Positions 1,839-57,129 of a stretch of 64,000 bases of DNA are shown one piece after another (positions within the stretch are counted from its first letter, which is position 1; each line of letters starts with the position of its first letter). The notes beneath the pieces are model-generated. The model saw nothing but the letters and a program-made list of their open reading frames with translations. It did not search any database and had not been told where the DNA came from. Position numbers and translations under genes: made by a program. Origin of the DNA: a virus; the IMG/VR virus record IMGVR_UViG_3300032287_003731, positions 32,954-96,953 of that record; one strand, 5' to 3'.

Positions 1839-2582
1839 CTATAGTCCAGAGTCAGGCCAAAGAAAGTTAATACCTAAAGAAATTTCTATACCCTCCCCAG
1901 TATAGTTTTCATCATTTGGTTTATATTTCATATTAATATCTGGTGATATTTGATTATAATATTGACGAAGAGCTCTAGAATCTTTAGCGATTAAATAATT
2001 ATCAACAAATTCACGAATATCTTTTGGTTCACGTTTACCTTCAACTGAAGTGATAATATGTTTTAAGCGTGTAGTAACATCAGTTGTAATGTTTGGATTT
2101 ATTTTTTTTAATCCTTTAATTTCAGCTTCGATTTTTTGTTCATCACCGTGTGTTAAAAGTTTAAAAGTAATATTATTAGTAGAATGAGGAAGAGTAAATT
2201 CAAATTCATTCATACCATGTTTAAATAAAGAAAAATCTACTATTTTATCTTCTAATGTAGATAAATCAACATTAATTTCTGTTTCGCCAAAAGTAACAGG
2301 ATAGTCTTTACCATAACCTAAAATGCGAGCAGCAATTAAAATAGCATTTTTATCACCGACTAATAATTCATTGTAATCAATTGGTGTTACAATAAGCGCT
2401 TGTAATAATTTATCTACTACTGTTCCATTTTTAATGTAATTAGTATTAGTAAGAATATCTTCTTCCTTAGCAGTCATATACTTCATTTCAATTTCACCTT
2501 TTGCTAGTGGTGATGTAACTGGATAAAGTAAACCTTTAGAAGGTAATGCAACTGTTTCTGTTGGAATTTTTAATTCAGCCAT
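1839..2582 (-). CDS. Tail assembly chaperone / baseplate-hub assembly-like protein
   Basis: LPSKGLLYP...MTAKEEDIL...FLWPD motifs; between tube and tape measure. ATG at 2582 (MAELKIPTE) chosen because it lies downstream of the ATATTTAT motif. Confidence 0.7.
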   Translation of the reverse strand: MAELKIPTETVALPSKGLLYPVTSPLAKGEIEMKYMTAKEEDILTNTNYIKNGTVVDKLLQALIVTPIDYNELLVGDKNAILIAARILGYGKDYPVTFGETEINVDLSTLEDKIVDFSLFKHGMNEFEFTLPHSTNNITFKLLTHGDEQKIEAEIKGLKKINPNITTDVTTRLKHIITSVEGKREPKDIREFVDNYLIAKDSRALRQYYNQISPDINMKYKPNDENYTGEGIEISLGINFLWPDSGL

Positions 2583-2619
2583 ATAACGTTTTTTATTGTT
2601 TGATATATATAAATATATG

Positions 2620-2650
2620 AAAAGTAAAAGCGTCTGCAAAAGCAGACGCC
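2620..2650 (-). terminator. Rho-independent terminator after tail tube gene
   Basis: GCGTCTGC-TTTT-GCAGACGC followed by TTTTACTTTT on the minus strand. Confidence 0.8.
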
Positions 2651-2677
2651 TTTATAAAAGAAAGAAATATAGAGAAA

Positions 2678-3163
2678 TCAGAAGTTCAATACGCAGTAAT
2701 CCATAGCGATTGTAACGGATAAGTTAATTGCGGCATCGTTAGCCCAATCATACTCACCAAAGGTAGCTGTTTTAACATAAGCACCTTTAACAATCCACTC
2801 ACCTACTACATCACCTACAGGACCTAAAATGTCTAATGTTAAGTCTTTCTTGTAGAAGTCAGAATAGCCATCACGACCAGTTACTGATTCGTGTGCTAAA
2901 CGAGCCCATTCCATTACAGCTTGAGCACCAGAGGGAGTTACAGGATCATATAAACTTAAAGTCATATCATTCCAACGTACTTTACCTTTTACTTTACGGT
3001 AAACGTTGATGTGATCTAATATAATTTCACCAGCTTCAAATCCAGGAGCAGAAGCAGCTTTAATCAAGTATGCGGGAATACCGTCAATATACATGATAAA
3101 GCGATTCTGAACTTTAGGTTCAAATGCTGTAAACATAATTTCATTTGCGTCTAATACAGGCAT
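2678..3163 (-). CDS. Tail tube protein (T4 gp19-like)
   Basis: 161 aa, FEPK.QNRF, W..M.L.LYDP, YKKDL.L.ILGPVG motifs; downstream of sheath. Confidence 0.9.
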   Translation of the reverse strand: MPVLDANEIMFTAFEPKVQNRFIMYIDGIPAYLIKAASAPGFEAGEIILDHINVYRKVKGKVRWNDMTLSLYDPVTPSGAQAVMEWARLAHESVTGRDGYSDFYKKDLTLDILGPVGDVVGEWIVKGAYVKTATFGEYDWANDAAINLSVTIAMDYCVLNF

Positions 3164-3224
3164 GTTATTTAATTTTTAAATTATTCTGGGTATAAATATG
3201 TTAAATTATAAAAAACATATTATT

Positions 3225-3932
3225 TTAGATGTATTTCCATTGAAATCCATAGGCTGTTTTAGATACACCAATTAAACAACAACTAATGTTAGAATGTTTT
3301 TTTCCAATATATTTTGCAGCTTCTCCTATACTATTATGTTGTTTTATTATATTACCTTCTTTATCTAGTTGTAATATAGGTTTATATTTTTTATTTAAAT
3401 AAGATTGAGATTGTTTTTTACCTTTTTTAGCTTTACTTATCTTTTGTTTATGTTCATCTGTATATTTACGACCTGTTATTTTTTGTCGTATTATTTCACC
3501 AAATCCTTCTGGTTTTGGTTTACCTATATTAGCTTGTTTTAATTTTTCTTTACGTTTTTGATTATTACTTATTTTATTTTTAGTTTCTTGTGTTACTATT
3601 TTATTTTTATTTCCTTTTCTTATTTTATTAATAACATAATTATATTTATCCTCATTTAAATCTTTATTATACCATCCAGATGTTTTACTTCTTATATTAT
3701 AAAAACTTTTTGATTTAACAGCATTGAAATAATATATCCAGTATTCTTCACGTTCACCTAAATTTTCTTTAGTACAATATTCTAATATTTCTTTTTTGAA
3801 GTTTTCTTTACCATATTTTTTAATATCTTCTAAAAGTAAAGTACCACTACCTAAATAATCAGGATCATTATGTGAATCTTTTCCTATATATTTTTTACCG
3901 TTTATTAAATTTTTTGTAATATACACTACCAT
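3225..3932 (-). mobile_element. Free-standing GIY-YIG homing endonuclease (Seg-like, NUMOD repeats)
   Basis: VVYITKNLINGKKYIG, YLGSG, NFKKEILE; Lys-rich NUMOD3-like repeats; C-terminal NUMOD1-like SIGEAAK...TAYGFQWKY. Inserted between sheath and tube. Confidence 0.9.
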
Positions 3933-3937
3933 AAAAA

Positions 3938-3972
3938 TATCCTCTTACAATAATAAATATTGTAAGAGGATA
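3938..3972 (-). promoter_or_regulatory. 15-bp perfect hairpin enclosing the ATATTTAT motif upstream of the endonuclease
   Basis: TATCCTCTTACAATA (3938-3952) / TATTGTAAGAGGATA (3958-3972); motif at 3953-3960; 5 nt from the ATG. Confidence 0.75.
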
Positions 3973-4009
3973 AATTTTAATATTTTACTTAAGGAAGCTT
4001 AAAAGTAAA

Positions 4010-5728
4010 TTAAGCCCCAAAAGTTGCACCAGTTGGTTGAATGTTGAAATTCAATATAATGAATTCAGCAGTCTTAGTTGGTTGAATATAGATCTGACCT
4101 ACTAATTGATTGCGATCTATTACATCAGGTGTGTTATTGGAATCATCCATTACTACCTTGTAAGCATATAAACCTTGACGTTGTACTACTGATTCGAGAT
4201 ATGGATTAACTTGAGCAAGGAATCTATTGCGAGTAACATTAGTATTTTGTTCGAATACTAAACTGTTTGATACTTGACCAATATAATCTTTTAAGGCAAT
4301 TAATAAACGACGAACGTTTACACGATCAAGAGCGGTTTGTTTTTTCTGTAATGTTTTCTGACCATATACTACAACACCTTCACCAGGGAATGTAGCGAGT
4401 GGGTTAACATTACCTGAGTATAATGAATCACGATCCGCTTGAGATAATCTCTTTTCGGCACGTAATACTGAAGGAACACCACCACGATTTAAACCAGCAG
4501 GAGCAAACCAGCTAGCAGCGACTTGATCATTGAAAGCATAAACACCACCTATTACTGTTGATGGAGGCGCCCATACAGATTTACCTAAAGTGGAACTATA
4601 TAATTGAACCCAAGGATAGTAAGTAGCAGCATAGTTACTTGATTGAACAGCAGCAGCATTTACTGCTGAACTAATTGCAATTCCATAAATACCAGCATCT
4701 ACAACAGCAATAGCATCACCTCTGTTTTCAACAGTTGAAATCATAGTTGAAACAGCACTGTTACTTAAGCCAACACCAGGAGCTAATAATACATTGAATT
4801 GATAAGCATCTGAGTTATTTAAGATACGGAATGCTGTGATATAGTCGTTAGCTGAAAATCCTTGAATATTACTTGTTGTAATAGTTTCATTCATTAATTG
4901 AGCAGTAGTAGTTGCCGCTACACCCCCAGCAAATGAACCACCAAATGAACCACTCCCTAATGCAGGTAGTGAGCCACTGTATTGAGTAGCTTTATAGCTA
5001 CCGTTATTATCAATTGAATCTACCTGAGGTGTAGTTACTGATTTAACACGTATATATCTTGAAGCATTAGTGTATGAACCTGTAATATCAACTATATAAT
5101 TACCATCACTATCAATTGCAAATACAGGTTTAATATCACCTATAACACGAGAAATATAGTTAGGTAATACTGGGTCTAATGATAAGTTAGCCCATGTTTC
5201 TAAATAATTAGGTTGAGCAGTATTGTCATTACCTGCACGAACGGCTAAAGTAAATATACCACTACCTGTACTTACATTTGTTACTTCCCAGCGAACGTTG
5301 AGATTACTACCGCTTGCTAAAGCACCACTTACCATGCTAGAAGTATTATTCATAATATCACCCCAAGCTAATGTTTCAATCACAAATGAAGAAACATCAA
5401 CTACTCCAGGAACTGTAGCTTGTGAATAAGTACTAACACCAGCAGAGCCACTAATAATTCTAGTTACGAGTAATGTTTGACCACCATTCTGAAAGAAATC
5501 TTTAGCAGCTAATGATGTAAAGTATTCATAGTAGTAGCTACTACTTTTAAATGATTCACCAAATTTAGCTACATATTCACTGTATGAAGTAACATAAGTA
5601 GGAACAAAAGGTTGACCTAATACTGTAGGACCAACAAGTGCAGTAGCTGTTCCTTGAATGCCCTGCTGCACTAAAGACTGGTCAGTTTCATTTTGAAACA
5701 CACCAGGCGAAATAATTTTTTCTGCCAT
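4010..5728 (-). CDS. Tail sheath protein (T4 gp18-like)
   Basis: ISPGVF N-terminus, WFAPAGLNRG, VYGQKTLQ, DRVNVRRLL, FEQN, IQPTKTAEFI. Confidence 0.95.
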   Translation of the reverse strand: MAEKIISPGVFQNETDQSLVQQGIQGTATALVGPTVLGQPFVPTYVTSYSEYVAKFGESFKSSSYYYEYFTSLAAKDFFQNGGQTLLVTRIISGSAGVSTYSQATVPGVVDVSSFVIETLAWGDIMNNTSSMVSGALASGSNLNVRWEVTNVSTGSGIFTLAVRAGNDNTAQPNYLETWANLSLDPVLPNYISRVIGDIKPVFAIDSDGNYIVDITGSYTNASRYIRVKSVTTPQVDSIDNNGSYKATQYSGSLPALGSGSFGGSFAGGVAATTTAQLMNETITTSNIQGFSANDYITAFRILNNSDAYQFNVLLAPGVGLSNSAVSTMISTVENRGDAIAVVDAGIYGIAISSAVNAAAVQSSNYAATYYPWVQLYSSTLGKSVWAPPSTVIGGVYAFNDQVAASWFAPAGLNRGGVPSVLRAEKRLSQADRDSLYSGNVNPLATFPGEGVVVYGQKTLQKKQTALDRVNVRRLLIALKDYIGQVSNSLVFEQNTNVTRNRFLAQVNPYLESVVQRQGLYAYKVVMDDSNNTPDVIDRNQLVGQIYIQPTKTAEFIILNFNIQPTGATFGA

Positions 5729-32676: not shown

Positions 32677-34317
32677 TTAAAGAGTATTTAAACCAGCAAC
32701 ATACACCTTACCATAATAATCAGGTCTAATCATCTTCTTAGCGTAACGAGTCATCAAACCTTTACGTGGAGTGAAGGTATTAGGATCGTAAAGAAGTGGA
32801 GTCATGATTAAAGGCACATATGGAGCGAATACAGCACCGCACTCAAGGAACTGAGCACCTTTGTAACCCATGAGGATTACATTCTCAGTCATGTATGGGT
32901 TCTTGTAAACCTTGTAACGGCTATTAAGTGAACCAACTTTCTGAATACCGAAGTTGAATTCCATCTTTTCGCCATCACCGTCAGAAGCAAATCCAGGAAT
33001 AGATTCGAGGATTGTAGCTACGGTTGGTGAAGTTACGAGGAAGTTAGCGCCACCGCGGAGAGTTAACTGATGGATTGTGTTAGAAACTTTCTGGAGTTTA
33101 GTACCGAGGGTTTGGAACCAACCACCTTGGGTATTGTAGAAACCTAAGTTGCTATTAGTAACACCAGATGTACCTACAGCTTGGTTGTTAACTGCTGACC
33201 AATATTCAGTTGTGAAAGCGTTTTGAATTAACATATCAAGGATTTCGAGGTCGATTTCCATTGAAATGTACTGTGATAAAATGCCAGTTAATTCAGCTTC
33301 AGCATCTACGCTATGGTAAGCGTTAAGATCCTGAGCGAATTCTGGAGTCCATTGTGCTTTTAACTTACGAGTTTTAGCAACAATAGCTTCAGATTTCAAC
33401 TGAACGTTAATCTCTGGGATAGAAATTGTAGTATTGCTTAAAGCATTGGGATAACCACCATTACCATTAGCAGTACCCGCACCACCACCAACTGATTGGT
33501 CTTCAAAATCACCGCGATCAGCAGGATCTGGAGCTACAGAGAAGAATAATGTAGTACTAGGCATAGCACCACCGGTCACAGCAGGAACAACAGAACCAGT
33601 CACAATGAAGGAAGCTGTGTTGTTAGATACAGTAGTAAATTGCTGTAAAATATCAGTAGCAGTAATAGAACCAGAAGTAAATACAAATGATCTAACAGCA
33701 TTCTGATCAGCAGGAGTTGGAAGGGGAACTAATACTTTTTTCCAACCAGTAGCAGCAGAAGCTGAATAGTTAGAATCCAAGTTAAAGTCAGCCCATGTGG
33801 TTGAACCGGTTAAAGCAGCAACAGAAGCTGAGAACTGGTTGATTGAGTAACCAAACTTACCAGCACCATAGAGTGACTGAGAAGCAATATCGGTTACATT
33901 TGTGGTTGCGTTAGCACCATAAAGTGAACCACCGTTAGTGAATGGCTTAACACCAGTGCCGTATTTGAAATCAAGATAGAATACGAGACCTGAAGGTAAG
34001 TTCATTGGCTGTACGCTAACGAATTCTTTAGCAGCGATTTCACCGAATACGCGGCGAACTAATGGTAAAGCTACACCAGCCCAGTTTTCTGAGTTGTAAC
34101 CACCACCAGACATTGAGGTAGTACCGCCAGTAGCTGAAGCTTCGGTGATTAATTGCTTGGCTTGGTTCTCGAGGAGAATAGCCATTGTGTTTTTGTCTTG
34201 AGTGTTACCGATACCTTCTAAAAGACCGGATTTAGCCCACTTACCAGACAAACGTTGTGCATCTTCCATTATAACTTTATATTGGTTAGATGACTCGAGT
34301 AATTGTTGTACGTTCAT
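32677..34317 (-). CDS. Major capsid protein (T4 gp23-like)
   Basis: KWAKSGLLEG, LVRR, VSVQPM..PSGLVFYL, AKTRKLKA.WT.E.AQDL, FAPYVPL, PRKGLMTRY. Confidence 0.97.
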   Translation of the reverse strand: MNVQQLLESSNQYKVIMEDAQRLSGKWAKSGLLEGIGNTQDKNTMAILLENQAKQLITEASATGGTTSMSGGGYNSENWAGVALPLVRRVFGEIAAKEFVSVQPMNLPSGLVFYLDFKYGTGVKPFTNGGSLYGANATTNVTDIASQSLYGAGKFGYSINQFSASVAALTGSTTWADFNLDSNYSASAATGWKKVLVPLPTPADQNAVRSFVFTSGSITATDILQQFTTVSNNTASFIVTGSVVPAVTGGAMPSTTLFFSVAPDPADRGDFEDQSVGGGAGTANGNGGYPNALSNTTISIPEINVQLKSEAIVAKTRKLKAQWTPEFAQDLNAYHSVDAEAELTGILSQYISMEIDLEILDMLIQNAFTTEYWSAVNNQAVGTSGVTNSNLGFYNTQGGWFQTLGTKLQKVSNTIHQLTLRGGANFLVTSPTVATILESIPGFASDGDGEKMEFNFGIQKVGSLNSRYKVYKNPYMTENVILMGYKGAQFLECGAVFAPYVPLIMTPLLYDPNTFTPRKGLMTRYAKKMIRPDYYGKVYVAGLNTL

Positions 34318-34348: not shown

Positions 34349-35425
34349 TTAGTGTTTTTTAATACCAGCAAGCATTTGCCATCTTGACATTGTTTCGTCT
34401 ACTTCGACGATTGGTTTTTTAGCAATACCTGCTGCTTTAGAAGCAAAGCCCATAGATTCTTTAATTGAAGACTTAGCGGATTTTACAATAGCAACGTCCA
34501 TAGTTTCATAAATCATCTTAGCTTCTTTAATAGTAGCTGCTTTGTCGAATTGAGCAATTACTTTAAGTTTTTGTGATTCGGTTAAGTTTTTGGCTTTGAA
34601 AATCTTATTTACATAGAGTAATTTAGCGTTAAGAAGATTAACTTCGTTAAGTTCTGAGCGAAGAGTGTGGATAGTAGCAATAGCTTCATCTAACTCTTTT
34701 TTCATTTTATCATCTTCTTCTTTAGCTTTTTTCATTTTTTTCTTAGCTTCGTACATTCCGCCTTCTTCGTATTCTGTTTCTTCAGAATAGTCTTCGCCTA
34801 AAGCGTCAAGTTCAGCTAATAATTCTTCTAAATCAAGATCTTCTTCCATTTCTTCTCCTTCATCAGATACATCAACAGACATTTCATCACCAGCTTCCAT
34901 TTCACCGCCGCCCATGTCTTCCATGCCGCCGTCTTCCATTTCGCTAGAAATAATGTCTTTGATAATCATTTTTAATTCTTCTACTGAAAGATCAGCTACA
35001 GTTTCAGATTCGGTAGATTCAGATTCTTCTTCTTTACCTTCTTCTTCTTCTTCTTTAGCTTCTTCCATTTTTTCTTTTTCTTCTTCTTTTTTAGCTTCTT
35101 CAAGTTCAGCTAAAATTTCAGATAAATCGAAGTCTTCTTCTAACTCATCACCACCTTCTTCAAGAGCAGCACCAGTTGCACGATATCTGTCTTGAATTTT
35201 ATCACTAGTTTCAGAAGGATAGAAGCCTTCTTTCATTTTTTCGTCGTCCTTGTCTTTTGCTTCTTCTAAATCTTCACCTTCCATTTCTTGCAATTTAGCA
35301 GCAAGCATAGATTGAAGTCTAGGGGCAAGAGCTTCTTCAAGAGCGACTTTTGCGTTGGCTAAAGCAGTTTCACGAATAGCTTTAGCGTCAGCAATTGCTT
35401 CTTTGAACAAATCTTGGTTTGTCAT
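34349..35425 (-). CDS. Prohead core/scaffold protein
   Basis: Very acidic, many [LIM]xE sites, between protease and capsid genes; ends MSRWQMLAGIKKH. Confidence 0.85.
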   Translation of the reverse strand: MTNQDLFKEAIADAKAIRETALANAKVALEEALAPRLQSMLAAKLQEMEGEDLEEAKDKDDEKMKEGFYPSETSDKIQDRYRATGAALEEGGDELEEDFDLSEILAELEEAKKEEEKEKMEEAKEEEEEGKEEESESTESETVADLSVEELKMIIKDIISSEMEDGGMEDMGGGEMEAGDEMSVDVSDEGEEMEEDLDLEELLAELDALGEDYSEETEYEEGGMYEAKKKMKKAKEEDDKMKKELDEAIATIHTLRSELNEVNLLNAKLLYVNKIFKAKNLTESQKLKVIAQFDKAATIKEAKMIYETMDVAIVKSAKSSIKESMGFASKAAGIAKKPIVEVDETMSRWQMLAGIKKH

Positions 35426-35572: not shown

Positions 35573-36178
35573 TTAACATAAAGGACAAACTCCAGTATGT
35601 TGACAAATAATTTCTGTTATTAAACTATTTACTTTACTATAATCTTTAATAGAAGCATATTGCTTTGATTCAGCTAATTTCATATAAGCCTGCGGAGTAC
35701 TAGGTACTGATACTAAATCCCAACATAATAATTCAAAATCATCTTGTACTTCAACTGTTTCACCAAGTTGTTTAACACTACCCATACCACGTGATGAAAT
35801 TCCAAGTGGAATACCTGATAGTACAAGTGCTTTAGCAATATTGCCAGCAGGTGTAGGTAATAATTGTAATTTACCCATTAAGTCATTTCCTTTCCACCAT
35901 ACTTCTGTAATAAGATGAGAAGTATTGGCTAAGTTTACAACAGAGGCTTCAGGATGATCGAGTTCTCCTAAAGCAGTGCGTGTTTTTATTGGTCCTTCAG
36001 CGTATTTTTTTACTTCTCTTTCAAGTATTTCGCGAGGATATACACGACCATTGCCATTTTTTTGCTCAGCTTCTTGTAATTTACCAACTAAAGTGACAGT
36101 ACCATTATTTGCTTTACCTTCAACTAAAGTAAGTTTAGCGTGTTGGAAAGGAGTATGGTCTATAAGTAATGATTTCAT
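35573..36178 (-). CDS. Prohead protease (T4 gp21-like)
   Basis: KNGNGRVYP, ALGELDHP, TPAG, GISSRGMGS, WDLVSVPS. Confidence 0.95.
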   Translation of the reverse strand: MKSLLIDHTPFQHAKLTLVEGKANNGTVTLVGKLQEAEQKNGNGRVYPREILEREVKKYAEGPIKTRTALGELDHPEASVVNLANTSHLITEVWWKGNDLMGKLQLLPTPAGNIAKALVLSGIPLGISSRGMGSVKQLGETVEVQDDFELLCWDLVSVPSTPQAYMKLAESKQYASIKDYSKVNSLITEIICQHTGVCPLC

Positions 36179-37570: not shown

Positions 37571-38104
37571 TCACGAAAAAGGTAATTCAGAAGCCGGAAT
37601 AGAAGTTGATTTTATTTTCATTTCTTTTTTAATCATATTTAAAATATAATCAACAGATCCTAATCCTAATTCTTGTAAATTTTCAATAGCTTTTATGGTT
37701 GTATTAATTTCTTTATTTATATATTCTTCTCTTTCAATATCCATAGAAGTATCAGCTTCGTTAATTGGTTTATCAACGAGTATTTCAAATATAGCTTGAG
37801 CTAATTTACCGTAATTACCTTTATCTAAGCTATCTTTCATATAACTGCTGATTCTAGTAGTTGTTCCATTACTAAGTTTCACATTATTATCTTTTCTAAA
37901 AGAAAACCTGTATGTAGCCTCTATTATTTTCATTATATCATCTTCTTGACTAGTACTTATTTCTTGCCCGATTTCTTTTAAATATAATTTTTTTACTTGA
38001 TCTACAATACTATTATATATACTTTCATTTTCATTCATATTATTCTCCTTCAAAATACCAGCTAATTGCTGCATTCTATAAATTTCATTAAGTTGTTTTT
38101 TCAT
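37571..38104 (-). CDS. RMQQLAGI-leader protein (putative capsid cargo)
   Basis: MKKQLNEIYRMQQLAGILKENNMNE followed by unique sequence. Confidence 0.75.
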   Translation of the reverse strand: MKKQLNEIYRMQQLAGILKENNMNENESIYNSIVDQVKKLYLKEIGQEISTSQEDDIMKIIEATYRFSFRKDNNVKLSNGTTTRISSYMKDSLDKGNYGKLAQAIFEILVDKPINEADTSMDIEREEYINKEINTTIKAIENLQELGLGSVDYILNMIKKEMKIKSTSIPASELPFS

Positions 38105-51179: not shown

Positions 51180-51418
51180 GATCTATTTCCCATTTTTTTA
51201 GAAGCAGCTGTTTTATGAAAAGGAACTCCATTTTCTTCTTTTTTAGCCATTTCCCACGCTTCTTTAGTGTATTTAGTACCAAATAAATAATACTCTGCTA
51301 AGCGTTTGTTACCTTGTGGGATAAGAGCAGGTCCATCAAAATTATGAAGTTTATATACTCCATTAGCTTCATTAACATATGCTATAGTTCCATCTGCTTT
51401 TACTAGTTTTTTTACCAT
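51176..51418 (-). CDS. Small protein with LHNFDGPA repeat-type motif
   Basis: KLHNFDGPALIP...EYYLFG. Confidence 0.7.
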   Translation of the reverse strand: MVKKLVKADGTIAYVNEANGVYKLHNFDGPALIPQGNKRLAEYYLFGTKYTKEAWEMAKKEENGVPFHKTAASKKMGNRS

Positions 51419-51452
51419 ATTTTTATTTTAAAATTAATAAAATTATTTTGCC
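51417..51452. repeat. 36-bp direct repeat (second copy 52047..52082) flanking a cargo cassette
   Basis: ATATTTTTATTTTAAAA[T/G]TAATAAAATTATTTTGCC, one mismatch. Confidence 0.85.
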
Positions 51453-51453
51453 T

Positions 51454-51486
51454 AAAAAAATGATGTACTTTATTCAAGTACGTCAT
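51454..51486 (-). terminator. Terminator inside the cassette
   Basis: ATGACGTACTT-GAATA-AAGTACATCAT (one mismatch) then a T run on the minus strand. Confidence 0.65.
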
Positions 51487-51542
51487 CATCATGACTATAA
51501 ATCTAGTATGTATGTTTTTACTAATTTTTATTCAATTAAATT

Positions 51543-52025
51543 TTAAGCTCCTAATGAATCATAAAAAGCATCCCATAATTCCTCTTCTTCATATTCTATT
51601 TCAATATCTTTTCCACTTTTAGAATATACATATCCTATTACTTCAAATTCAGCATCACTGCATCCTTCTGGATCAAGAATTAAACCTGGAATATTTTTTT
51701 CTAATTCTAATTTAGGGTCAGGCATACTTAAAATCCATTTTTTATCATCTGGAAGATCAATAAAATTGGAATACCCTATAATTTCTTTTACTTTTTTTCC
51801 ATTTATTAATATAAAATCATCTGCTAGTCCTTTTTCACAATAAAAGAATTTATAATCTTTTTCATTTTGATAATAATTAGGAGTATATTTAACTACTAAA
51901 TCATCTTCAAAATTAAAATCTTCAATTTCTCCTTTATCATTAATAGAAACTTCATCTAATTGTGATTCTTTTAAAATACCAGCTAACTGCTGCATTCTAT
52001 GAATTTCGTTAAGTTGCTTTTTCAT
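51543..52025 (-). CDS. RMQQLAGI-leader protein (putative capsid cargo), acidic payload
   Basis: MKKQLNEIHRMQQLAGILKESQLDE. Confidence 0.75.
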   Translation of the reverse strand: MKKQLNEIHRMQQLAGILKESQLDEVSINDKGEIEDFNFEDDLVVKYTPNYYQNEKDYKFFYCEKGLADDFILINGKKVKEIIGYSNFIDLPDDKKWILSMPDPKLELEKNIPGLILDPEGCSDAEFEVIGYVYSKSGKDIEIEYEEEELWDAFYDSLGA

Positions 52026-52072
52026 TTTTTTTTATTATAATAATAAATATTTTTATTTTAAAAGTAATAAAA

Positions 52073-52846
52073 TTATTTTGCCAAAATGCTTTCAGCAACA
52101 TAAATACCATGCGCACCGCTAACGGTAATACCACGAGCTGAAAGTGCATCACCTACAAAGTGTACATATGGATATTCAGTTAATGATAAATCATCATAAT
52201 TAACTAACGGTTCCGGTGATAAGTATTTTACTTCAGGAATGTACATACCCCAATCATCACCAAATTCAAATACTTTATTCATTGATAATATAAAATCATG
52301 AATATAAGTAGCATATTCACCTAATACTTCATAAAACCTAACCAAATTATCTACAGGATAAGCAGATACAGTTGTTCCCTCGGATGTTAATCCAGGTTGA
52401 CGAGTTTTGTTTGGTGAATAATAAGTACCAGTTCCATTAATTTGTAGTTTTTGAACAATATCTCTACTCCAAGCAAATGGATCTTCAATACCTTTGATTT
52501 CCATTAATATACCAAAATTAGTCATTTGGTTTTCGAATTCTTTACCTTTTTTGGCGTGTCCGTTGTAGCTAACGTCTCCATAAGTTTCTTCCACTGCAAC
52601 GTAAGCTGCATTGTTGTTAGTACAAAAGCTACGGAGAGATACCTTATCGAATTTTTGATATAGTTTAAAATCATATGATATATCAATTAGTTTTTGAAAA
52701 TACTTTTGTGGGCTTTCAAATCTCACTCCAATCTGCACAGCGCGAGCTTCAGTTGGTAATTGTTTTTCTCTCACTATTTTTTGAGTTAAATCCATACCAG
52801 CTTTACCAGTACCATAAATTAAAGTATCAAATTTTATTTTTTTCAT
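52073..52846 (-). CDS. FAD-dependent oxidoreductase, C-terminal half
   Basis: GTGKAG, IGVRFE, RSFCTN, NGHA, TNFGIL, PEVKY, FVGDA..ARGI..SGAHG. Confidence 0.85.
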   Translation of the reverse strand: MKKIKFDTLIYGTGKAGMDLTQKIVREKQLPTEARAVQIGVRFESPQKYFQKLIDISYDFKLYQKFDKVSLRSFCTNNNAAYVAVEETYGDVSYNGHAKKGKEFENQMTNFGILMEIKGIEDPFAWSRDIVQKLQINGTGTYYSPNKTRQPGLTSEGTTVSAYPVDNLVRFYEVLGEYATYIHDFILSMNKVFEFGDDWGMYIPEVKYLSPEPLVNYDDLSLTEYPYVHFVGDALSARGITVSGAHGIYVAESILAK

Positions 52847-52847
52847 A

Positions 52848-53648
52848 TTAATTGTTTTTATATTTCCATTTATAACCTAATACAGATTTTCTTTTTCCTT
52901 GACAACATAAACATATTCCTCCATTGCTTTTTAATCCTGTTGTATCCTCAAATTCTTGAACAGAATCCCACTCTTTAATAAAATTATCTTCTAAATCATA
53001 TTGAAGGACAGGTTTTCTTCTTTTTTGAGAAACCATTTGATTTCTATATGTCCAATCTATATCTCGTTTTTTAAAAGTATCACTTTTCTTCTTTCTAGTC
53101 TCTTCAGAATCTTTTATACCTAATCTAACTTTTTTACCTATCATAGACTTACTTTTCTTCTCACTGCTTTCCTTACTCATCTTTTTGCCTTTATTAGGTG
53201 ATATATGACCTTTTAATCCTTCAGATATTTTTCTTTTAGATTCTTCAGAATGTTTCATTCCAGTAGTACCAGCTTTAACACCACATTCAGCTATATTAGC
53301 TAATATATAACCTTTATTTCGCAAATCTAATTCTATTTCTCTTTCTTTTAATAATGCTTCATTTTCACTTAATCCTTCAAATAATATTTTAGATTCAAAT
53401 ACACCATTATTTTTATTTACAATATTATGCCAGTATTGATTTCTACCATATTTTGATCTATCTCGTTTAGATATTCCTTTTCCAACATAAAACGGTTTAT
53501 TCATATCAGGTCGTATATGAATATAAACTATAAAGTTATTGTTTTGGTTTTTTTTCGTGATATTTTTGTTTGAGTTTTTCATCGATTTTTTCTTTATTAG
53601 ACCAATAATATTTCTTACTATATTCTCGTTGTTTGAGAATACGTTCAT
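52848..53648 (-). mobile_element. GIY-YIG-like homing endonuclease (NUMOD3/NUMOD1) splitting the oxidoreductase
   Basis: VYIHIRPD..PFYVGKG, HSEESKRKIS, VLQYDLE..FIKEW, GYKWKY; true start uncertain. Confidence 0.85.
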
Positions 53649-53679
53649 CTTCTGTTTGATATTTTTTAATACGTCCCAT
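53536..53679 (-). CDS. 47-aa basic ORF at the head of the endonuclease insert
   Basis: Hand-translated MGRIKKYQTEDERILKQREYSKKYYWSNKEKIDEKLKQKYHEKKPKQ; first ATG after ATATTTAT (53685-53692). Confidence 0.55.
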   Translation of the reverse strand: MGRIKKYQTEDERILKQREYSKKYYWSNKEKIDEKLKQKYHEKKPKQ

Positions 53680-53721
53680 CTATTATAAATATTATAGATC
53701 TAAGAAAAAATCTAAGAAAAA

Positions 53722-54243
53722 TCAATTATTCTTTAATATTATTTCTTTAGTTTCAAAATCAATATCTTCAACTTCAGTATTCCACATGAATCTAACACCT
53801 TTATCAACTAAATATTGATACCAACGTTTTCCTATTTCATGCAAGTAGTCTGTACCTATGTGGTATACGGGGAATAAGCGAAGTCCAAAATACGGCTTAA
53901 TAAAATCTGGTTCTGCTTGTGGGTTAGAGTACATTATTTTAGAAGGATCAGGATGGAAGCGTTTCCACATCTCAATTGATTGATTCATTAAATTATATGC
54001 TTTTTTTTCACCACAATACTTACTTAACTGACCTCCAATTGAAGTATGATAAGTAAGTTTACCATCTGAAAATCCTCCTGCTCCTGCAAAACCACACATT
54101 ACTTCTTCTGGTTTGCGAACATAAGGATCATTCCCTTTATCAATAATAGTAATTAATTCTCCAGGATAATTATTATCTATTAATTTTAATGCAGCACTAA
54201 TACCAGCTACACCACTTCCAACAATTACAATTTTATTCTTCAT
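53722..54243 (-). CDS. FAD-dependent oxidoreductase, N-terminal half
   Basis: IVIVGSGVAG Rossmann motif, GFAGAGGFSDGKL, HIGTD. Confidence 0.88.
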   Translation of the reverse strand: MKNKIVIVGSGVAGISAALKLIDNNYPGELITIIDKGNDPYVRKPEEVMCGFAGAGGFSDGKLTYHTSIGGQLSKYCGEKKAYNLMNQSIEMWKRFHPDPSKIMYSNPQAEPDFIKPYFGLRLFPVYHIGTDYLHEIGKRWYQYLVDKGVRFMWNTEVEDIDFETKEIILKNN

Positions 54244-54519: not shown

Positions 54520-55065
54520 TTAATAATTTATTTTTGCCATTTCAAATTTTGAAGGTCTAATATTCCAATTATCAATATATCTTATATTTTTTTCTTTTTT
54601 ACACCATATCGCTATAGTAGAAAGACTTATATTTAATTTATTAGCTGCTTCAGAACAAGATTCATATATCTCTCCGGTTTTTATATTTTGTATTCGTTTT
54701 CCTAGTTTTCTTTTAAATTTATTTTCCATCCAAAGTTTTTTCATTTTTTCACTTTTAATACGTTTAGCTTCTTCAGGATATATATAAGGTTTATGATAAC
54801 CTCCTCCTATGCAATTCATACCATTTAAAACACAGTTATACTGTTTTATCCAGTATTGTTCTTTTTTATTTAGTTCTTCTTCTTTACATTCTTCTATTAT
54901 TTCAAAAGAATGATAAAACCATCCATATTTTTTTAAAGATTCATATAATTTAGTTTGTTCTTTACAATAATGCTTTTTATATGTTTCAAATCTTTTTTCT
55001 ATATTAGTTGATTGACCAATATATATTTCTTTTTCAGGGTTAGTTATTTTATAAATACCTATCAT
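54520..55065 (-). mobile_element. Free-standing GIY-YIG homing endonuclease
   Basis: MIGIYKITNP...IYIGQSTNIEKR, KKYG, E.YWI; C-terminal NUMOD1-like HTH. Confidence 0.9.
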
Positions 55066-55089: not shown

Positions 55090-55130
55090 AAAAAAAAATG
55101 GAGTAGTGGCTGTTTTAGGGCCACTACTCC
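55090..55130 (-). terminator. Strong terminator downstream of the cassette array
   Basis: GGAGTAGTGGC/GCCACTACTCC 11-bp stem followed by a T9 run on the minus strand. Confidence 0.85.
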
Positions 55131-55192
55131 GATTTATATAAATCCTCTAATGAGGCGAACAGGCAATGAATCTGTTTTATATATTTATATTA

Positions 55193-55534
55193 TTATAAAT
55201 AATTATTATAATATATAACTTTACCTGCTATATTTGCTGATTTTACTTTATTATATGGATCATTTTCAGGAAAAAGTTCTAACATATGTTCTTTACTAAA
55301 AGAAACATCTATTCCTGAGTTATCATCAGTACCTGCTGTAGCTACTAATGGATCACCCATAATTTCAAATTCAGAACCAGGATCACCTATTTTTTGAATA
55401 AATTCATCCATATTAGCGTTCAAAAATGAAGCAATATTTTTATCTTCATTCATTAATGATTCTTGATATTCACTTTCAGTGATTAATCCAGCGATAAGCT
55501 GCATTCTTTTAATTTCGTTAATTTGTTTTTTCAT
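55193..55534 (-). CDS. RMQLIAGL-leader protein (cassette 3)
   Basis: First 90 nt identical to those of 55604..56245. Confidence 0.8.
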   Translation of the reverse strand: MKKQINEIKRMQLIAGLITESEYQESLMNEDKNIASFLNANMDEFIQKIGDPGSEFEIMGDPLVATAGTDDNSGIDVSFSKEHMLELFPENDPYNKVKSANIAGKVIYYNNYL

Positions 55535-55603
55535 TTTTTTTTTTTGTTATATGTTAATAAATATCAGAACAGGCAATAAATCTGTTTTATATGTATTATT
55601 ATT

Positions 55604-56245
55604 TTATACTAATTCAATTCCCATTTCTTTTAACTTTTTTATAAAACTCATAATTTTTTGATTATCTACATCATCAAAGTCAGCTTCAAAAGCATCTTTT
55701 CCAGTTAAATCAGTTAAAATACCCATCCACTCTTCAGTTCCTGATTCTATTTCTTTGCCTCCCATTGATTCAAAATAATCATCATCTACTCCATTTTGAT
55801 TTAAAATATTAAGAACTTCTTCTTCAGACATTTGCTTATTTACTGATGAAATATTGTTAGGGGTTACTCTATTGGATTTTCTCCATGTAATTTTCACATC
55901 ACGGCCATATTTTATTTTAGCTGCTTTTGTTACAGCTTGTTCAAAACGAACACCTAATGCAAGATATGCGTTTTTATTTTCCCAATAGTTTTTAGGATCT
56001 CTTGGTCCTGGTATATAAATACTCTTCATAAAATCAGCTTCATTATCAGTTTCTAATTCTATTTCAAAAGTATTAGAATCAGCATCGTAAATACCATAGT
56101 CGTCTACATTATTGGGATTTATAAGAGTTTTTCTTAAAGTTTTATCAATTTCCCATTCATTCATTAATGATTCTTGATATTCACTTTCAGTGATTAATCC
56201 AGCGATAAGCTGCATTCTTTTAATTTCGTTAATTTGTTTTTTCAT
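55604..56245 (-). CDS. RMQLIAGL-leader protein (cassette 2)
   Basis: MKKQINEIKRMQLIAGLITESEYQESLMNE followed by unique payload. Confidence 0.8.
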   Translation of the reverse strand: MKKQINEIKRMQLIAGLITESEYQESLMNEWEIDKTLRKTLINPNNVDDYGIYDADSNTFEIELETDNEADFMKSIYIPGPRDPKNYWENKNAYLALGVRFEQAVTKAAKIKYGRDVKITWRKSNRVTPNNISSVNKQMSEEEVLNILNQNGVDDDYFESMGGKEIESGTEEWMGILTDLTGKDAFEADFDDVDNQKIMSFIKKLKEMGIELV

Positions 56246-56307
56246 TTTTTTTGTTATATATTAAATAAATATCTGAACAGGCAATAAATCTGTTTTATAT
56301 GTTTATA

Positions 56308-56640
56308 TTATTTTTGAATACGATCTTGTATTTCTTTTAATACTGATTTATCATGTATTGATATTGCAGGAGCACCATATCCTGAATCTGGCGTTAGTAT
56401 ACAAACGTAATTACTTCCTTCAAATACCACAGCATTTATTGTATTAGTTTCTATATCTGTTAATGTTCCTAATACTGTGCAATCATCTTTAAGTCCGGCG
56501 CTAAGATCTCCATCTGCTGGTGAATAGGCTCCTAAATTTTGTCCTGGTTGAAAGATAGTTACTTCTTCGTTTAGTTGGTTTTCTTTTAAAATACCAGCTA
56601 ATTGCTGTATTCTTTTAATTTCGTTAATTTGCTCTTTCAT
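56308..56640 (-). CDS. RIQQLAGI-leader protein (cassette 1)
   Basis: MKEQINEIKRIQQLAGILKENQLNE. Confidence 0.8.
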   Translation of the reverse strand: MKEQINEIKRIQQLAGILKENQLNEEVTIFQPGQNLGAYSPADGDLSAGLKDDCTVLGTLTDIETNTINAVVFEGSNYVCILTPDSGYGAPAISIHDKSVLKEIQDRIQK

Positions 56641-56649
56641 TTTTTTTTG

Positions 56650-57129
56650 TTATATATTAATAAATATCCAAGATGGCGTATTTCCTAATTTTTTCCAACT
56701 TAACCCTTTAACAGCTATTTTATCTTTAATATAAAACTGCTTATAAGCAATAATAGTATCACTATTCTTATACTCATCAGGCATACATTGTGGTGGGGGA
56801 GTAAACCCATTATCGGGTATATTAGGTTCATTATCACGGCACCATTCAAGTACATCTTGTGTTTTATGGTGTTTACCATAACGTTTTGTAAATTCACTAC
56901 AAATTTCAAGACCATGTTGTACAAGCCAACGATAGTGTTGAATTGATTGGCGAGTCCAAATTGTTGATGGATGATTAAAATGAGCACGCTTATATGGTGC
57001 TTGTGAACCTACTGCCCAATGTGTTGTACAGCACATTTGAGCTGATTCGATTTGCATTTTACGAATATGATCATCGGCTAATTGTTGTGCTGCGATGATT
57101 GGGTCTTGATTGATATAAAATATATTCAT
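56650..57129 (-). CDS. Pyrimidine-dimer DNA glycosylase (DenV-like) family protein
   Basis: MNIFY, D.HI.KM.IESAQM, YK..H.NHP..IW.R, EF.KRYGK.HK, QCMPDEYK. Confidence 0.8.
   Translation of the reverse strand: MNIFYINQDPIIAAQQLADDHIRKMQIESAQMCCTTHWAVGSQAPYKRAHFNHPSTIWTRQSIQHYRWLVQHGLEICSEFTKRYGKHHKTQDVLEWCRDNEPNIPDNGFTPPPQCMPDEYKNSDTIIAYKQFYIKDKIAVKGLSWKKLGNTPSWIFINI

Follow-up and report, generated by a model that had tools for sequence, protein, structure and literature searches.

In an uncultured T4-like myovirus, two neighbouring genes start with one 30-codon leader, identical in every nucleotide, and then continue into unrelated bodies. In the reading that we regard as probable, the two identical stretches are copies of a portable promoter-plus-leader unit in a hyperplastic array of three cargo cassettes, in which the leader would be a tag that is clipped off and the bodies would be exchanged by recombination. 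The array lies in the window (the whole 64,000-nt stretch of DNA that was analysed), which belongs to a single virus record of 96,953 nt; nearly every gene lies on the same strand, and the genome also encodes a tail sheath, a portal and a large terminase. All sequences compared are metagenome assemblies. The closest relative, L001 (IMG/VR 3300023179_000077), shares the flanks of the array with the window. The features of the array, in + strand coordinates and in the order in which the genes are read, are the following:

56650-57129, minus strand: Pyr_excise-like / phrog_624 gene, the conserved upstream flank of the array, 95.6% nucleotide identity to L001
56308-56640, minus strand: cassette Y, a third tandem leader gene with a leader of another subclass (MKEQINEIKRIQQLAGILKENQLNEE); L001 has an unrelated cassette here
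56246-56307, minus strand: spacer upstream of cassette B, with a 20-nt inverted repeat (56275-56294), the motif ATATTTAT and an A-run
56156-56245, minus strand: leader of cassette B, 30 codons (MKKQINEIKRMQLIAGLITESEYQESLMNE), 90 of 90 nt identical to 55445-55534
55844-56155, minus strand: orphan middle domain of B, residues 31-134, in frame and directly behind leader codon 30
55604-55831, minus strand: C-terminal domain of B, residues 139-213 plus stop, 98.7% nucleotide identity to L001
55535-55603, minus strand: spacer upstream of cassette A, with a 20-nt inverted repeat (55567-55586), the promoter-like motif ATATTTAT and an A-run
55445-55534, minus strand: leader of cassette A, an exact copy of the B leader (MKKQINEIKRMQLIAGLITESEYQESLMNE)
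55193-55444, minus strand: body of cassette A, 83 aa plus stop, whose homologues (66-85% identical) carry other leaders
55157-55176, minus strand: third copy of the inverted repeat (AACAGATTCATTGCCTGTTC, loop variant C), which closes cassette A
55090-55130, minus strand: GC-rich stem (GGAGTAGTGGC...GCCACTACTCC) followed by a T-run, a terminator-like end of the array that is kept in L001 after the second cassette
54520-55065, minus strand: GIY-YIG homing-endonuclease-like gene, directly downstream of cassette A, 99.1% nucleotide identity to L001

The initial annotation had reported that positions 55445-55534 and 56156-56245 are identical over 30 codons and that the bodies are then unrelated, and this is confirmed. 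The exact match is in fact 97 nt long (55445-55541 and 56156-56252) and consists of the 30 leader codons plus seven A's ahead of each ATG, its upstream limit being a homopolymer A-run of unequal length (11 vs 7). On the body side the very first base past the leader is already different, C at 55444 but A at 56155, and from there the protein reads DKNIASF... in A and WEIDKTL... in B, with 5% ungapped identity. Independent codon choice is excluded, because two independent draws from the codon usage of the genome would give identical 90-nt stretches with P = 1.3e-7 and because rare codons are common to both leaders (ATC, which makes up 6% of Ile codons, twice; also CAG, CTT and AAC). The leaders of A and B are thus 100% identical at the DNA level, while the pair in L001 is 93% identical, four further within-contig pairs reach 77-84%, and the remaining leaders of the same genome show 61-76%. 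Among 342 between-contig pairs with unrelated bodies the mean is 78% and the maximum 96.7%, with none at 100%. Since no other leader pair examined is fully identical, the copy is recent, and it reflects a lineage-specific event at the DNA level. Concerted evolution as a general rule was considered and rejected, because paralogous leaders elsewhere are 77-84% identical, the same as pairs from different genomes.

It could also be supposed that selection at the nucleotide level, acting on mRNA structure or translation initiation, keeps the leader DNA invariant, so that no recent copying is needed. Where contigs agree in the amino acid, their codons are indeed identical at a rate of 0.77, against 0.62 expected from usage, and certain codons are conserved (AAC6, which is rare, AGA10, GCT15 and TCA26). 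Shared descent explains this excess equally well, however, the leaders of the class differ from each other at 3-30% of their bases, and folding of the 5′ region shows nothing unusual (z = -1.79), so that selection of this kind is a very improbable source of the identity.

From the lack of even synonymous changes it had been concluded that recombination or conversion occurred recently. The recent shared DNA ancestry stands, but conversion does not follow from it. Between the two spacers (62 nt for B, 69 nt for A) 6 events are counted over 70 aligned columns, i.e. they are about 91% alike, whereas the 90 nt of the leader have 0 changes; this contrast (p = 0.006) would speak for conversion of a short patch. 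When only the 27 synonymous sites of the leader are compared with the spacer rate, p = 0.18, and duplication and gene conversion are therefore inseparable on these data. Given the pooled synonymous divergence between the window and L001 (4.4%), zero changes in the leader have P ~0.3, so that 'recent' has only loose limits when set against the split from L001. A plain tandem duplication would accordingly account for the same pattern by one illegitimate event that put a spacer and a leader before a foreign body, homology playing no role; the spacer would since have drifted by homopolymer slippage and AT-rich indels, with the constrained leader still unchanged. Such an event is compatible with the count at the 27 synonymous sites and with the low synonymous divergence (~1%) of the downstream segment, and L001 has a separate duplication of its own (~125 nt) that spans the 3′ end of the flank gene, the promoter and the leader. 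The points that weigh against it come from the comparison with L001 and other contigs.

L001 has the order flank, leader + X, leader + ENEA + C-terminal domain of B, GIY-YIG gene. Cassette Y of the window thus sits where L001 has X. The L001 orthologue of B (974-1303) reads leader, ENEA and C-terminal domain without the middle domain, so that B gains a 104-residue domain relative to L001, exactly between codon 30 and the C-terminal domain. The whole of cassette A, 410 nt from promoter to inverted repeat with leader and body between them, is found in the window and missing from L001, and it is flanked by two copies of the inverted repeat, which act as 20-nt direct repeats of each other, where L001 has one hybrid copy. 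Similarly, L001 lacks the leader cassette that starts at 52025 (630 nt), and the 40-nt direct repeat on either side of this cassette is single there. The second leader of L001 is identical to that of B over nt 19-90 (72/72), with 3 differences in the 18 nt before (p = 0.007), and its nt 1-18 resemble the MKKQLNE class; because the identity begins only at nt 19, a crossover within the leader at nt 18/19 is indicated. The window and L001 diverge by 4.2% upstream of the array and by 1.6% downstream (p = 0.0025), and this difference between its two sides makes the array a mosaic junction.

A rival reading is that the 97-nt repeat led a short-read assembler to merge cassettes of two co-existing strains. 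In sample 3300023179 two related IMG/VR contigs do break here: L027 ends inside the flank gene and L001 begins 67 nt before it, which shows that the locus is heterogeneous and hard to assemble. On the other hand, 97 nt is less than an ordinary read length, and the spacer between B and A is unique, having 6 differences from the spacer of B and adjoining the 3′ end of B. Tandem leader cassettes occur independently in L001, L104, L105, L040, L093 and L128; A, B, Y and the endonuclease gene are recorded on one contig of 152,230 nt, and A also on a separate contig of 38,425 nt. Even with a wrong order, one population would have an identical leader on two bodies. An assembly artefact is for these reasons improbable. 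Body A is not present in the L001 or L027 records; exact patterns of the leader-A junction had no match in metagenome or viral contigs, and a degenerate body-A pattern had 0 matches in viral contigs and was found in two short metagenome contigs.

Leader and body differ in their relatives. A search with protein B returns about 60 proteins that match in the leader alone, and the 30-residue leader class occurs on at least 53 non-redundant unrelated bodies. Across these 53 bodies the leader keeps an information content of 2.5 bits or more as far as residue 27, whereas residue 31 has 1.1 bits and later residues are at background; LITE is invariant, and the glutamate is at position 30 in 37 of 53 and at position 29 in 13 of 53. 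Conversely, proteins homologous to body A, at 66-85% identity, have at least five leader types among them, one of which comes from a second, unrelated family (MKKADNFDAKKWLVENK...RLNE). Their junction always lies 0-3 residues ahead of a conserved (D/N)IA(S/D)FLN, and in some of them an additional domain is found between leader and body. One leader on 53 bodies, and relatives of one body with at least five leaders, imply separate histories of the two parts. The site directly behind the leader is a recurrent insertion point.

The middle domain of B has no homologue among 104 relatives of B. Its C-terminal domain (75 residues) has 44 homologues, every one of them C-terminal and with variable middle parts in front, and is thus a widespread module at the C-terminus of leader-bearing proteins. 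It is modelled with pLDDT 83-95, compared with 76.2 for body B; the model of body A has pLDDT 84.8, and both body models are confident. Fold searches in the PDB with bodies A and B (including the C-terminal domain of B) gave no match, and neither did Pfam and PHROGs for A, B or Y.

Six leader genes are found in the genome (starts at 38104, 52025, 55534, 56245, 56640 and 57518), each beginning with the motif (E/Q)IxR(M/I/W)Q(x)(L/I)AG(I/L). The first of them (37571-38104) lies within the head module, with the portal on one side and the protease on the other. The genome has a head set of the T4 type, i.e. a gp21-family protease, a gp22-type scaffold and a gp23 capsid protein, encoded as follows:

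35573-36178, minus strand: prohead protease of the S77/gp21 family (Pfam PF03420 Peptidase_S77, E = 2.8e-33)
34349-35425, minus strand: acidic gp22-like scaffold, 358 aa, between the protease and capsid genes, with the C-terminus ...SRWQMLAGIKKH
32677-34317, minus strand: major capsid protein of the gp23 family (Pfam PF07068, E = 7.6e-79)

The C-terminus of the scaffold (...RWQMLAGIKKH) has the same core motif as the leader (QxLAGI). The capsid protein reads ...AKQLITE/ASATGG about 22 residues ahead of a conserved VRR block when it is aligned to T4 gp23 and mature gp23*; T4 gp23 itself is cut 28 residues ahead of this block, which leaves 456 of 521 residues in mature gp23*. The motif ATATTTAT sits 27-30 nt before the ATG in all three tandem cassettes and is likewise found ahead of the genes for portal, terminase and sheath; the coding strand has 30 occurrences vs 4 on the opposite strand, and the placement of the motif fits expression alongside head assembly. 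Taken together, the motif of the scaffold, the LITE site of the capsid protein, the leader gene in the head module and the ATATTTAT motif common to head genes argue, by analogy with the capsid targeting sequence (CTS) of T4 (PMC3012670, PMC12373910), that the leader is most likely a capsid-targeting tag, and the S77 prohead protease is presumed to be the candidate enzyme for its removal. The leader itself has no match in Pfam or PHROGs.

The claim that the identity ends exactly at the predicted cleavage site needs to be divided. The identity does end exactly behind codon 30, but the MNE found there (codons 28-30) is a site by prediction only. The leader has two candidate cleavage sites, and LITE (codons 17-20), ten codons upstream of MNE, is the best supported one because it is the tetrapeptide of the maturation site LITE/A of the capsid protein; MNE is, at a guess, a second. 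Shorter leader classes elsewhere (...LAGINE/IKV) have the first site alone.

Where homology breaks in other contigs was examined with all pairs that have at least 90% identity over the 150 nt upstream and unrelated bodies; the breaks are as follows, counted in nucleotides of the coding sequence:

L090_11449 and L128_5111: nt 3, the entire leader being exchanged
L128_9258 and L134_1208: nt 63/64, the exact end of a 21-codon leader, after LNE
L128_6910 and L134_3717: nt 68
L091 and L131: nt 69
L104_9291 and L105_5368: nt 70, with 97.7% identity over 1,860 nt upstream
L090_12003 and L134_3717: nt 79

When the window lineage is included (nt 18/19 and nt 90), there are about eight comparisons, with 7 of 8 breaks within the leader and 6 of 8 at nt 63-90, from a range that the choice of pairs confines to about -15 to +120 (~135 nt) and from pairs that are partly non-independent (L090, L128/L131 and L134 are related contigs). 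The commonest zone, nt 63-79, coincides with the 3′ limit of the conserved DNA core GCTGGATTAATCACTGAAAGTGAATAT, right behind LITE. In L104 and L105 the bodies are unrelated past nt 70, and homology returns 18 nt ahead of the next cassette. More generally, cassette number, order and identity are polymorphic among close relatives (the window and L001; L104 and L105; L128, L134 and L090). Breaks had been expected at the last [ILM]xE codon rather than at random places: they are non-random and lie in or at the end of the leader, but they cluster at nt 63-79, and only the window lineage, at nt 90, and one pair whose leader has 21 codons, at nt 63, break at that codon. It should also be kept in mind that, with selection for fusions in which tag and body are intact, the junctions that survive would lie near the end of the leader under any mechanism. 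A change-point map of 322 pairs with unrelated bodies (modes at nt 68 and 78) was set aside as a map of recombination, because it mostly tracks protein divergence at the 3′ end of the leader, and the pairs with near-identical upstream flanks are relied on instead.

These exchanges bear on the plain duplication described above. Close contigs with repeated independent exchanges inside the leader are hard to produce by illegitimate events alone, and the crossover at nt 18/19 of the second L001 leader is a further case. In addition, the closest homologues of body A carry a different, 25-aa leader class, so that a replacement of the leader is needed in any case. A duplication without any part for homology is on balance unlikely, even though a duplication of the unit could by itself have made the two leaders identical.

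In the preferred explanation, a portable promoter-plus-leader unit, each cassette consists of the ATATTTAT motif, an A-rich spacer, a leader of 25-30 codons, an unrelated body and a 20-nt inverted repeat. The leader would load the body into the prohead, where a gp21-type protease would then clip it off. The identity of A and B would come from short-patch gene conversion between tandem leaders or from duplication of the unit. Codon 30 is its limit because the module that the cassettes have in common goes no further and is followed by unrelated bodies; past this point no homology-dependent process would extend the identity, and the survivors would be in-frame, intact tag-body fusions. Two routes by which bodies are exchanged emerge when relatives are compared. 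A crossover in the leader core, combined with another exchange at the spacer or leader that comes next, would swap a body and keep the upstream flank, while recombination between direct repeats in the spacers would lead to the gain or loss of a whole cassette. Both routes would fit the homology-driven recombination of T4-type phages, which is described, in the account that PMC2839356 gives of Singer 1982, as working on less than 50 bp of homology; since this suffices, the promoter-plus-leader unit (~160 nt) and the 20-40-nt spacer repeats would be adequate substrates.

The inverted repeat has only 3 copies in the window, each behind one cassette, and the loop variant (C) of AACAGATTCATTGCCTGTTC is the same one that L001 has behind its last cassette. 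Its stem (AACAG/CTGTT) has 5 bp, is AT-rich and reaches -2.6 kcal/mol (z = -0.3) as an RNA hairpin; a compensatory variant, AACAC...GTGTT, is present in relatives. A role as a strong terminator was rejected because this fold is thermodynamically trivial.

The concept has precedents in T4 and its relatives. The CTS of T4 is about 10-11 residues long and is removed by gp21. In T-even phages the conserved CTS is the sole common part of the internal proteins (PMC3012670, PMC12373910), which in T4 are anti-restriction factors (PMC12373910), and the promoter and inverted-repeat sequences that flank internal protein (IP) cassettes were proposed to serve shuffling (Repoila et al. 1994, as represented in PMC2839356). 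As in the T-even IP loci, small proteins with nothing else in common here start with one N-terminal leader, which an [L/I]xE protease motif closes. Close relatives likewise differ strongly at these loci, a promoter motif and inverted repeats flank the cassettes, and a gp21-family protease, a gp22-like scaffold and gp23 are present. Unlike in those loci, the leader has 25-30 residues and is by its length not the CTS motif of T4 (~10-11), it copies the C-terminal motif of the scaffold, and it has two candidate cleavage sites. At 90 nt it is long enough to be a recombination substrate, and crossovers map inside the coding leader. The promoter motif is common with structural (late) genes instead of early ones, leader genes are found at several loci (38104, 52025, 55534-56640 and 57518), and the lineage is related to a Flavobacterium phage.

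The second precedent is the PeSL (promoter-early stem-loop) cassettes of T4-type phages (Arbiol et al. 2010, PMC2839356; Comeau et al. 2014, PMC4122927). In both systems ORFan cassettes in hyperplastic regions lie between short repeats, which here, as the ATATTTAT motif plus a weak inverted repeat, may be composite regulatory elements, and the ends of indels between near-identical phages lie in the repeats (here cassette A and the 52025 cassette, compared with L001). Sequence similarity to PeSLs is not evident, however: the stem has 5 bp and is AT-rich and weak, not GGGG...CCCC, the promoter motif is of a late type and not a sigma-70-like early promoter, and the repeated unit is partly coding, since it includes the leader. 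Polymorphic toxin and integron cassettes offer an analogy only, in that they also have a constant module, which serves delivery or recombination, exchangeable bodies and a fixed junction; here there is no integrase, attC-type site or toxin-immunity pair, and the constant module is a putatively removable N-terminal tag.

Because the concept goes back to the T-even IP loci (1994) and the PeSLs (2010, 2014), the array extends a known principle and maps it more sharply without adding a new one. Should the leader indeed be a tag for loading the capsid, the array would show how environmental T4-like phages renew the proteins that are delivered with their DNA. Exchange junctions are mapped to within a few bases, with crossovers in the coding tag and cassette gain or loss at short repeats, and a third kind of change, the in-frame insertion of a domain immediately behind the tag, is mapped as well. 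The nearest cultured relative, Flavobacterium phage vB_FspM_immuto, has a capsid protein that is 58% identical and carries two leader genes, immuto26A_188 and another at about 25.1 kb, which puts the idea of a tag within experimental reach; the array gave no match in cultured phage records (blastn, tblastn), and the 30-aa leader alone matches immuto, weakly.

A bolder version was already suggested in the initial annotation, according to which the leader is both the protein tag and the DNA homology arm for the exchange of payloads. Leader and body do assort independently, with breaks in or at the end of the leader, but where cassette A is present or absent relative to L001, the limits are set by the 20-nt inverted-repeat elements rather than by the leader. 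In its fullest form, the leader would serve as tag and as a 5′ arm conserved in the population, the inverted repeat would be the 3′ arm, and the GIY-YIG enzyme would trigger an integrase-free, in-frame exchange of cargo or domains, which we would call a doubtful proposition as a whole. In mixed infections with T4, the Seg-type homing endonucleases, free-standing enzymes of the GIY-YIG family, lead to local co-conversion of the markers that flank them. A similar arrangement is seen here, where a GIY-YIG gene of putative activity lies directly behind cassette A, and A-family cassettes in two unrelated contigs (L150 and L151) are likewise followed by GIY-YIG genes, which brings the association to three loci. 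Speculatively, breaks made by the neighbouring endonuclease may stimulate exchange, as with the Seg enzymes in T4. One member of the cluster to which this gene belongs is named as a group I intron endonuclease.

The capsid protein and the leader, the N-terminal segment of 25-30 codons that is a putative capsid-loading tag, have the tetrapeptide LITE in common, which closes the propeptide in the former and occupies codons 17-20 in the latter. In the capsid protein its position is homologous to the maturation site of T4 gp23. The features concerned here and below are as follows.

Features in the window and in other contigs (L numbers)
Window 33958-34317, minus strand: N-terminal propeptide of the capsid protein, ending in ...AKQLITE, followed by ASATGG
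Window 55604-55831: C-terminal domain of cassette B, 75 residues (homologues P0004-P0047)
L152 3001-3465: leader-bearing gene of immuto, leader MKKQILSEQFRRMQKLAGIITESQFNE...
L153 about 1460-1860: leader-bearing gene of immuto, leader MKKQILSEQFKRMQFLAGIITESEMWD...
Window 54520-55065: GIY-YIG endonuclease gene after an A-family cassette
L150 252-770: GIY-YIG endonuclease gene after an A-family cassette
L151 675-1211: GIY-YIG endonuclease gene after an A-family cassette

Among the cultured phages of the collection, a leader match was found in the Flavobacterium phage immuto only (MW353175.1), which carries two such genes. The family of body A, the part behind the leader of cassette A, is also fused to a second leader family, unrelated to the first, in the homologous proteins P0112, P0120, P0125 and P0127; its pattern is M(KK)ADNF(D/N)xK(K/Q)(W/F)L(V/A)ENK...(R/K)(L/M)NE, and it may be another capsid-loading tag. 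The module at the C-terminus of B is widespread and folds with confidence in a predicted model; it is always C-terminal, preceded by a leader and then by a variable middle stretch whose length ranges from 0 to ~220 residues, and a fold search of the PDB with this domain gave no match.

Across the whole window, the motif ATATTTAT has 30 copies on the coding strand against 4 on the opposite one. Copies are found 12-51 nt upstream of the genes for portal, terminase, sheath, large tail protein and endonuclease, as well as of four of the six leader genes.

In each of three different contexts, a GIY-YIG endonuclease gene lies directly 3′ of an A-family cassette, and these endonucleases differ from one another. 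Another endonuclease gene (52848-53648) splits a FAD-oxidoreductase-like gene in the window (52073-54243), whereas in L001, the closest relative, that gene is unsplit (3170-4504, 444 aa), with a different GIY-YIG gene just upstream of it (2541-3185). L001 also does not have the leader cassette that starts at window 52025, a 630-nt unit (window 51417-52086 versus L001 4491-4547), and the 40-nt repeat which flanks this cassette in the window is single-copy in L001.

Two related IMG/VR contigs of sample 3300023179, L027 and L001, both break at the locus of the array of tandem cassettes, which suggests that strains are heterogeneous there; L027 ends inside the array-flanking gene and L001 starts just before it. 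Finally, the 20-nt intergenic inverted repeat has a variant at L015 4878 and L026 4873, with AACAC...GTGTT in place of AACAG...CTGTT; the compensatory changes in both arms hint at a role for pairing or for a symmetric binding site, despite the weak stem.
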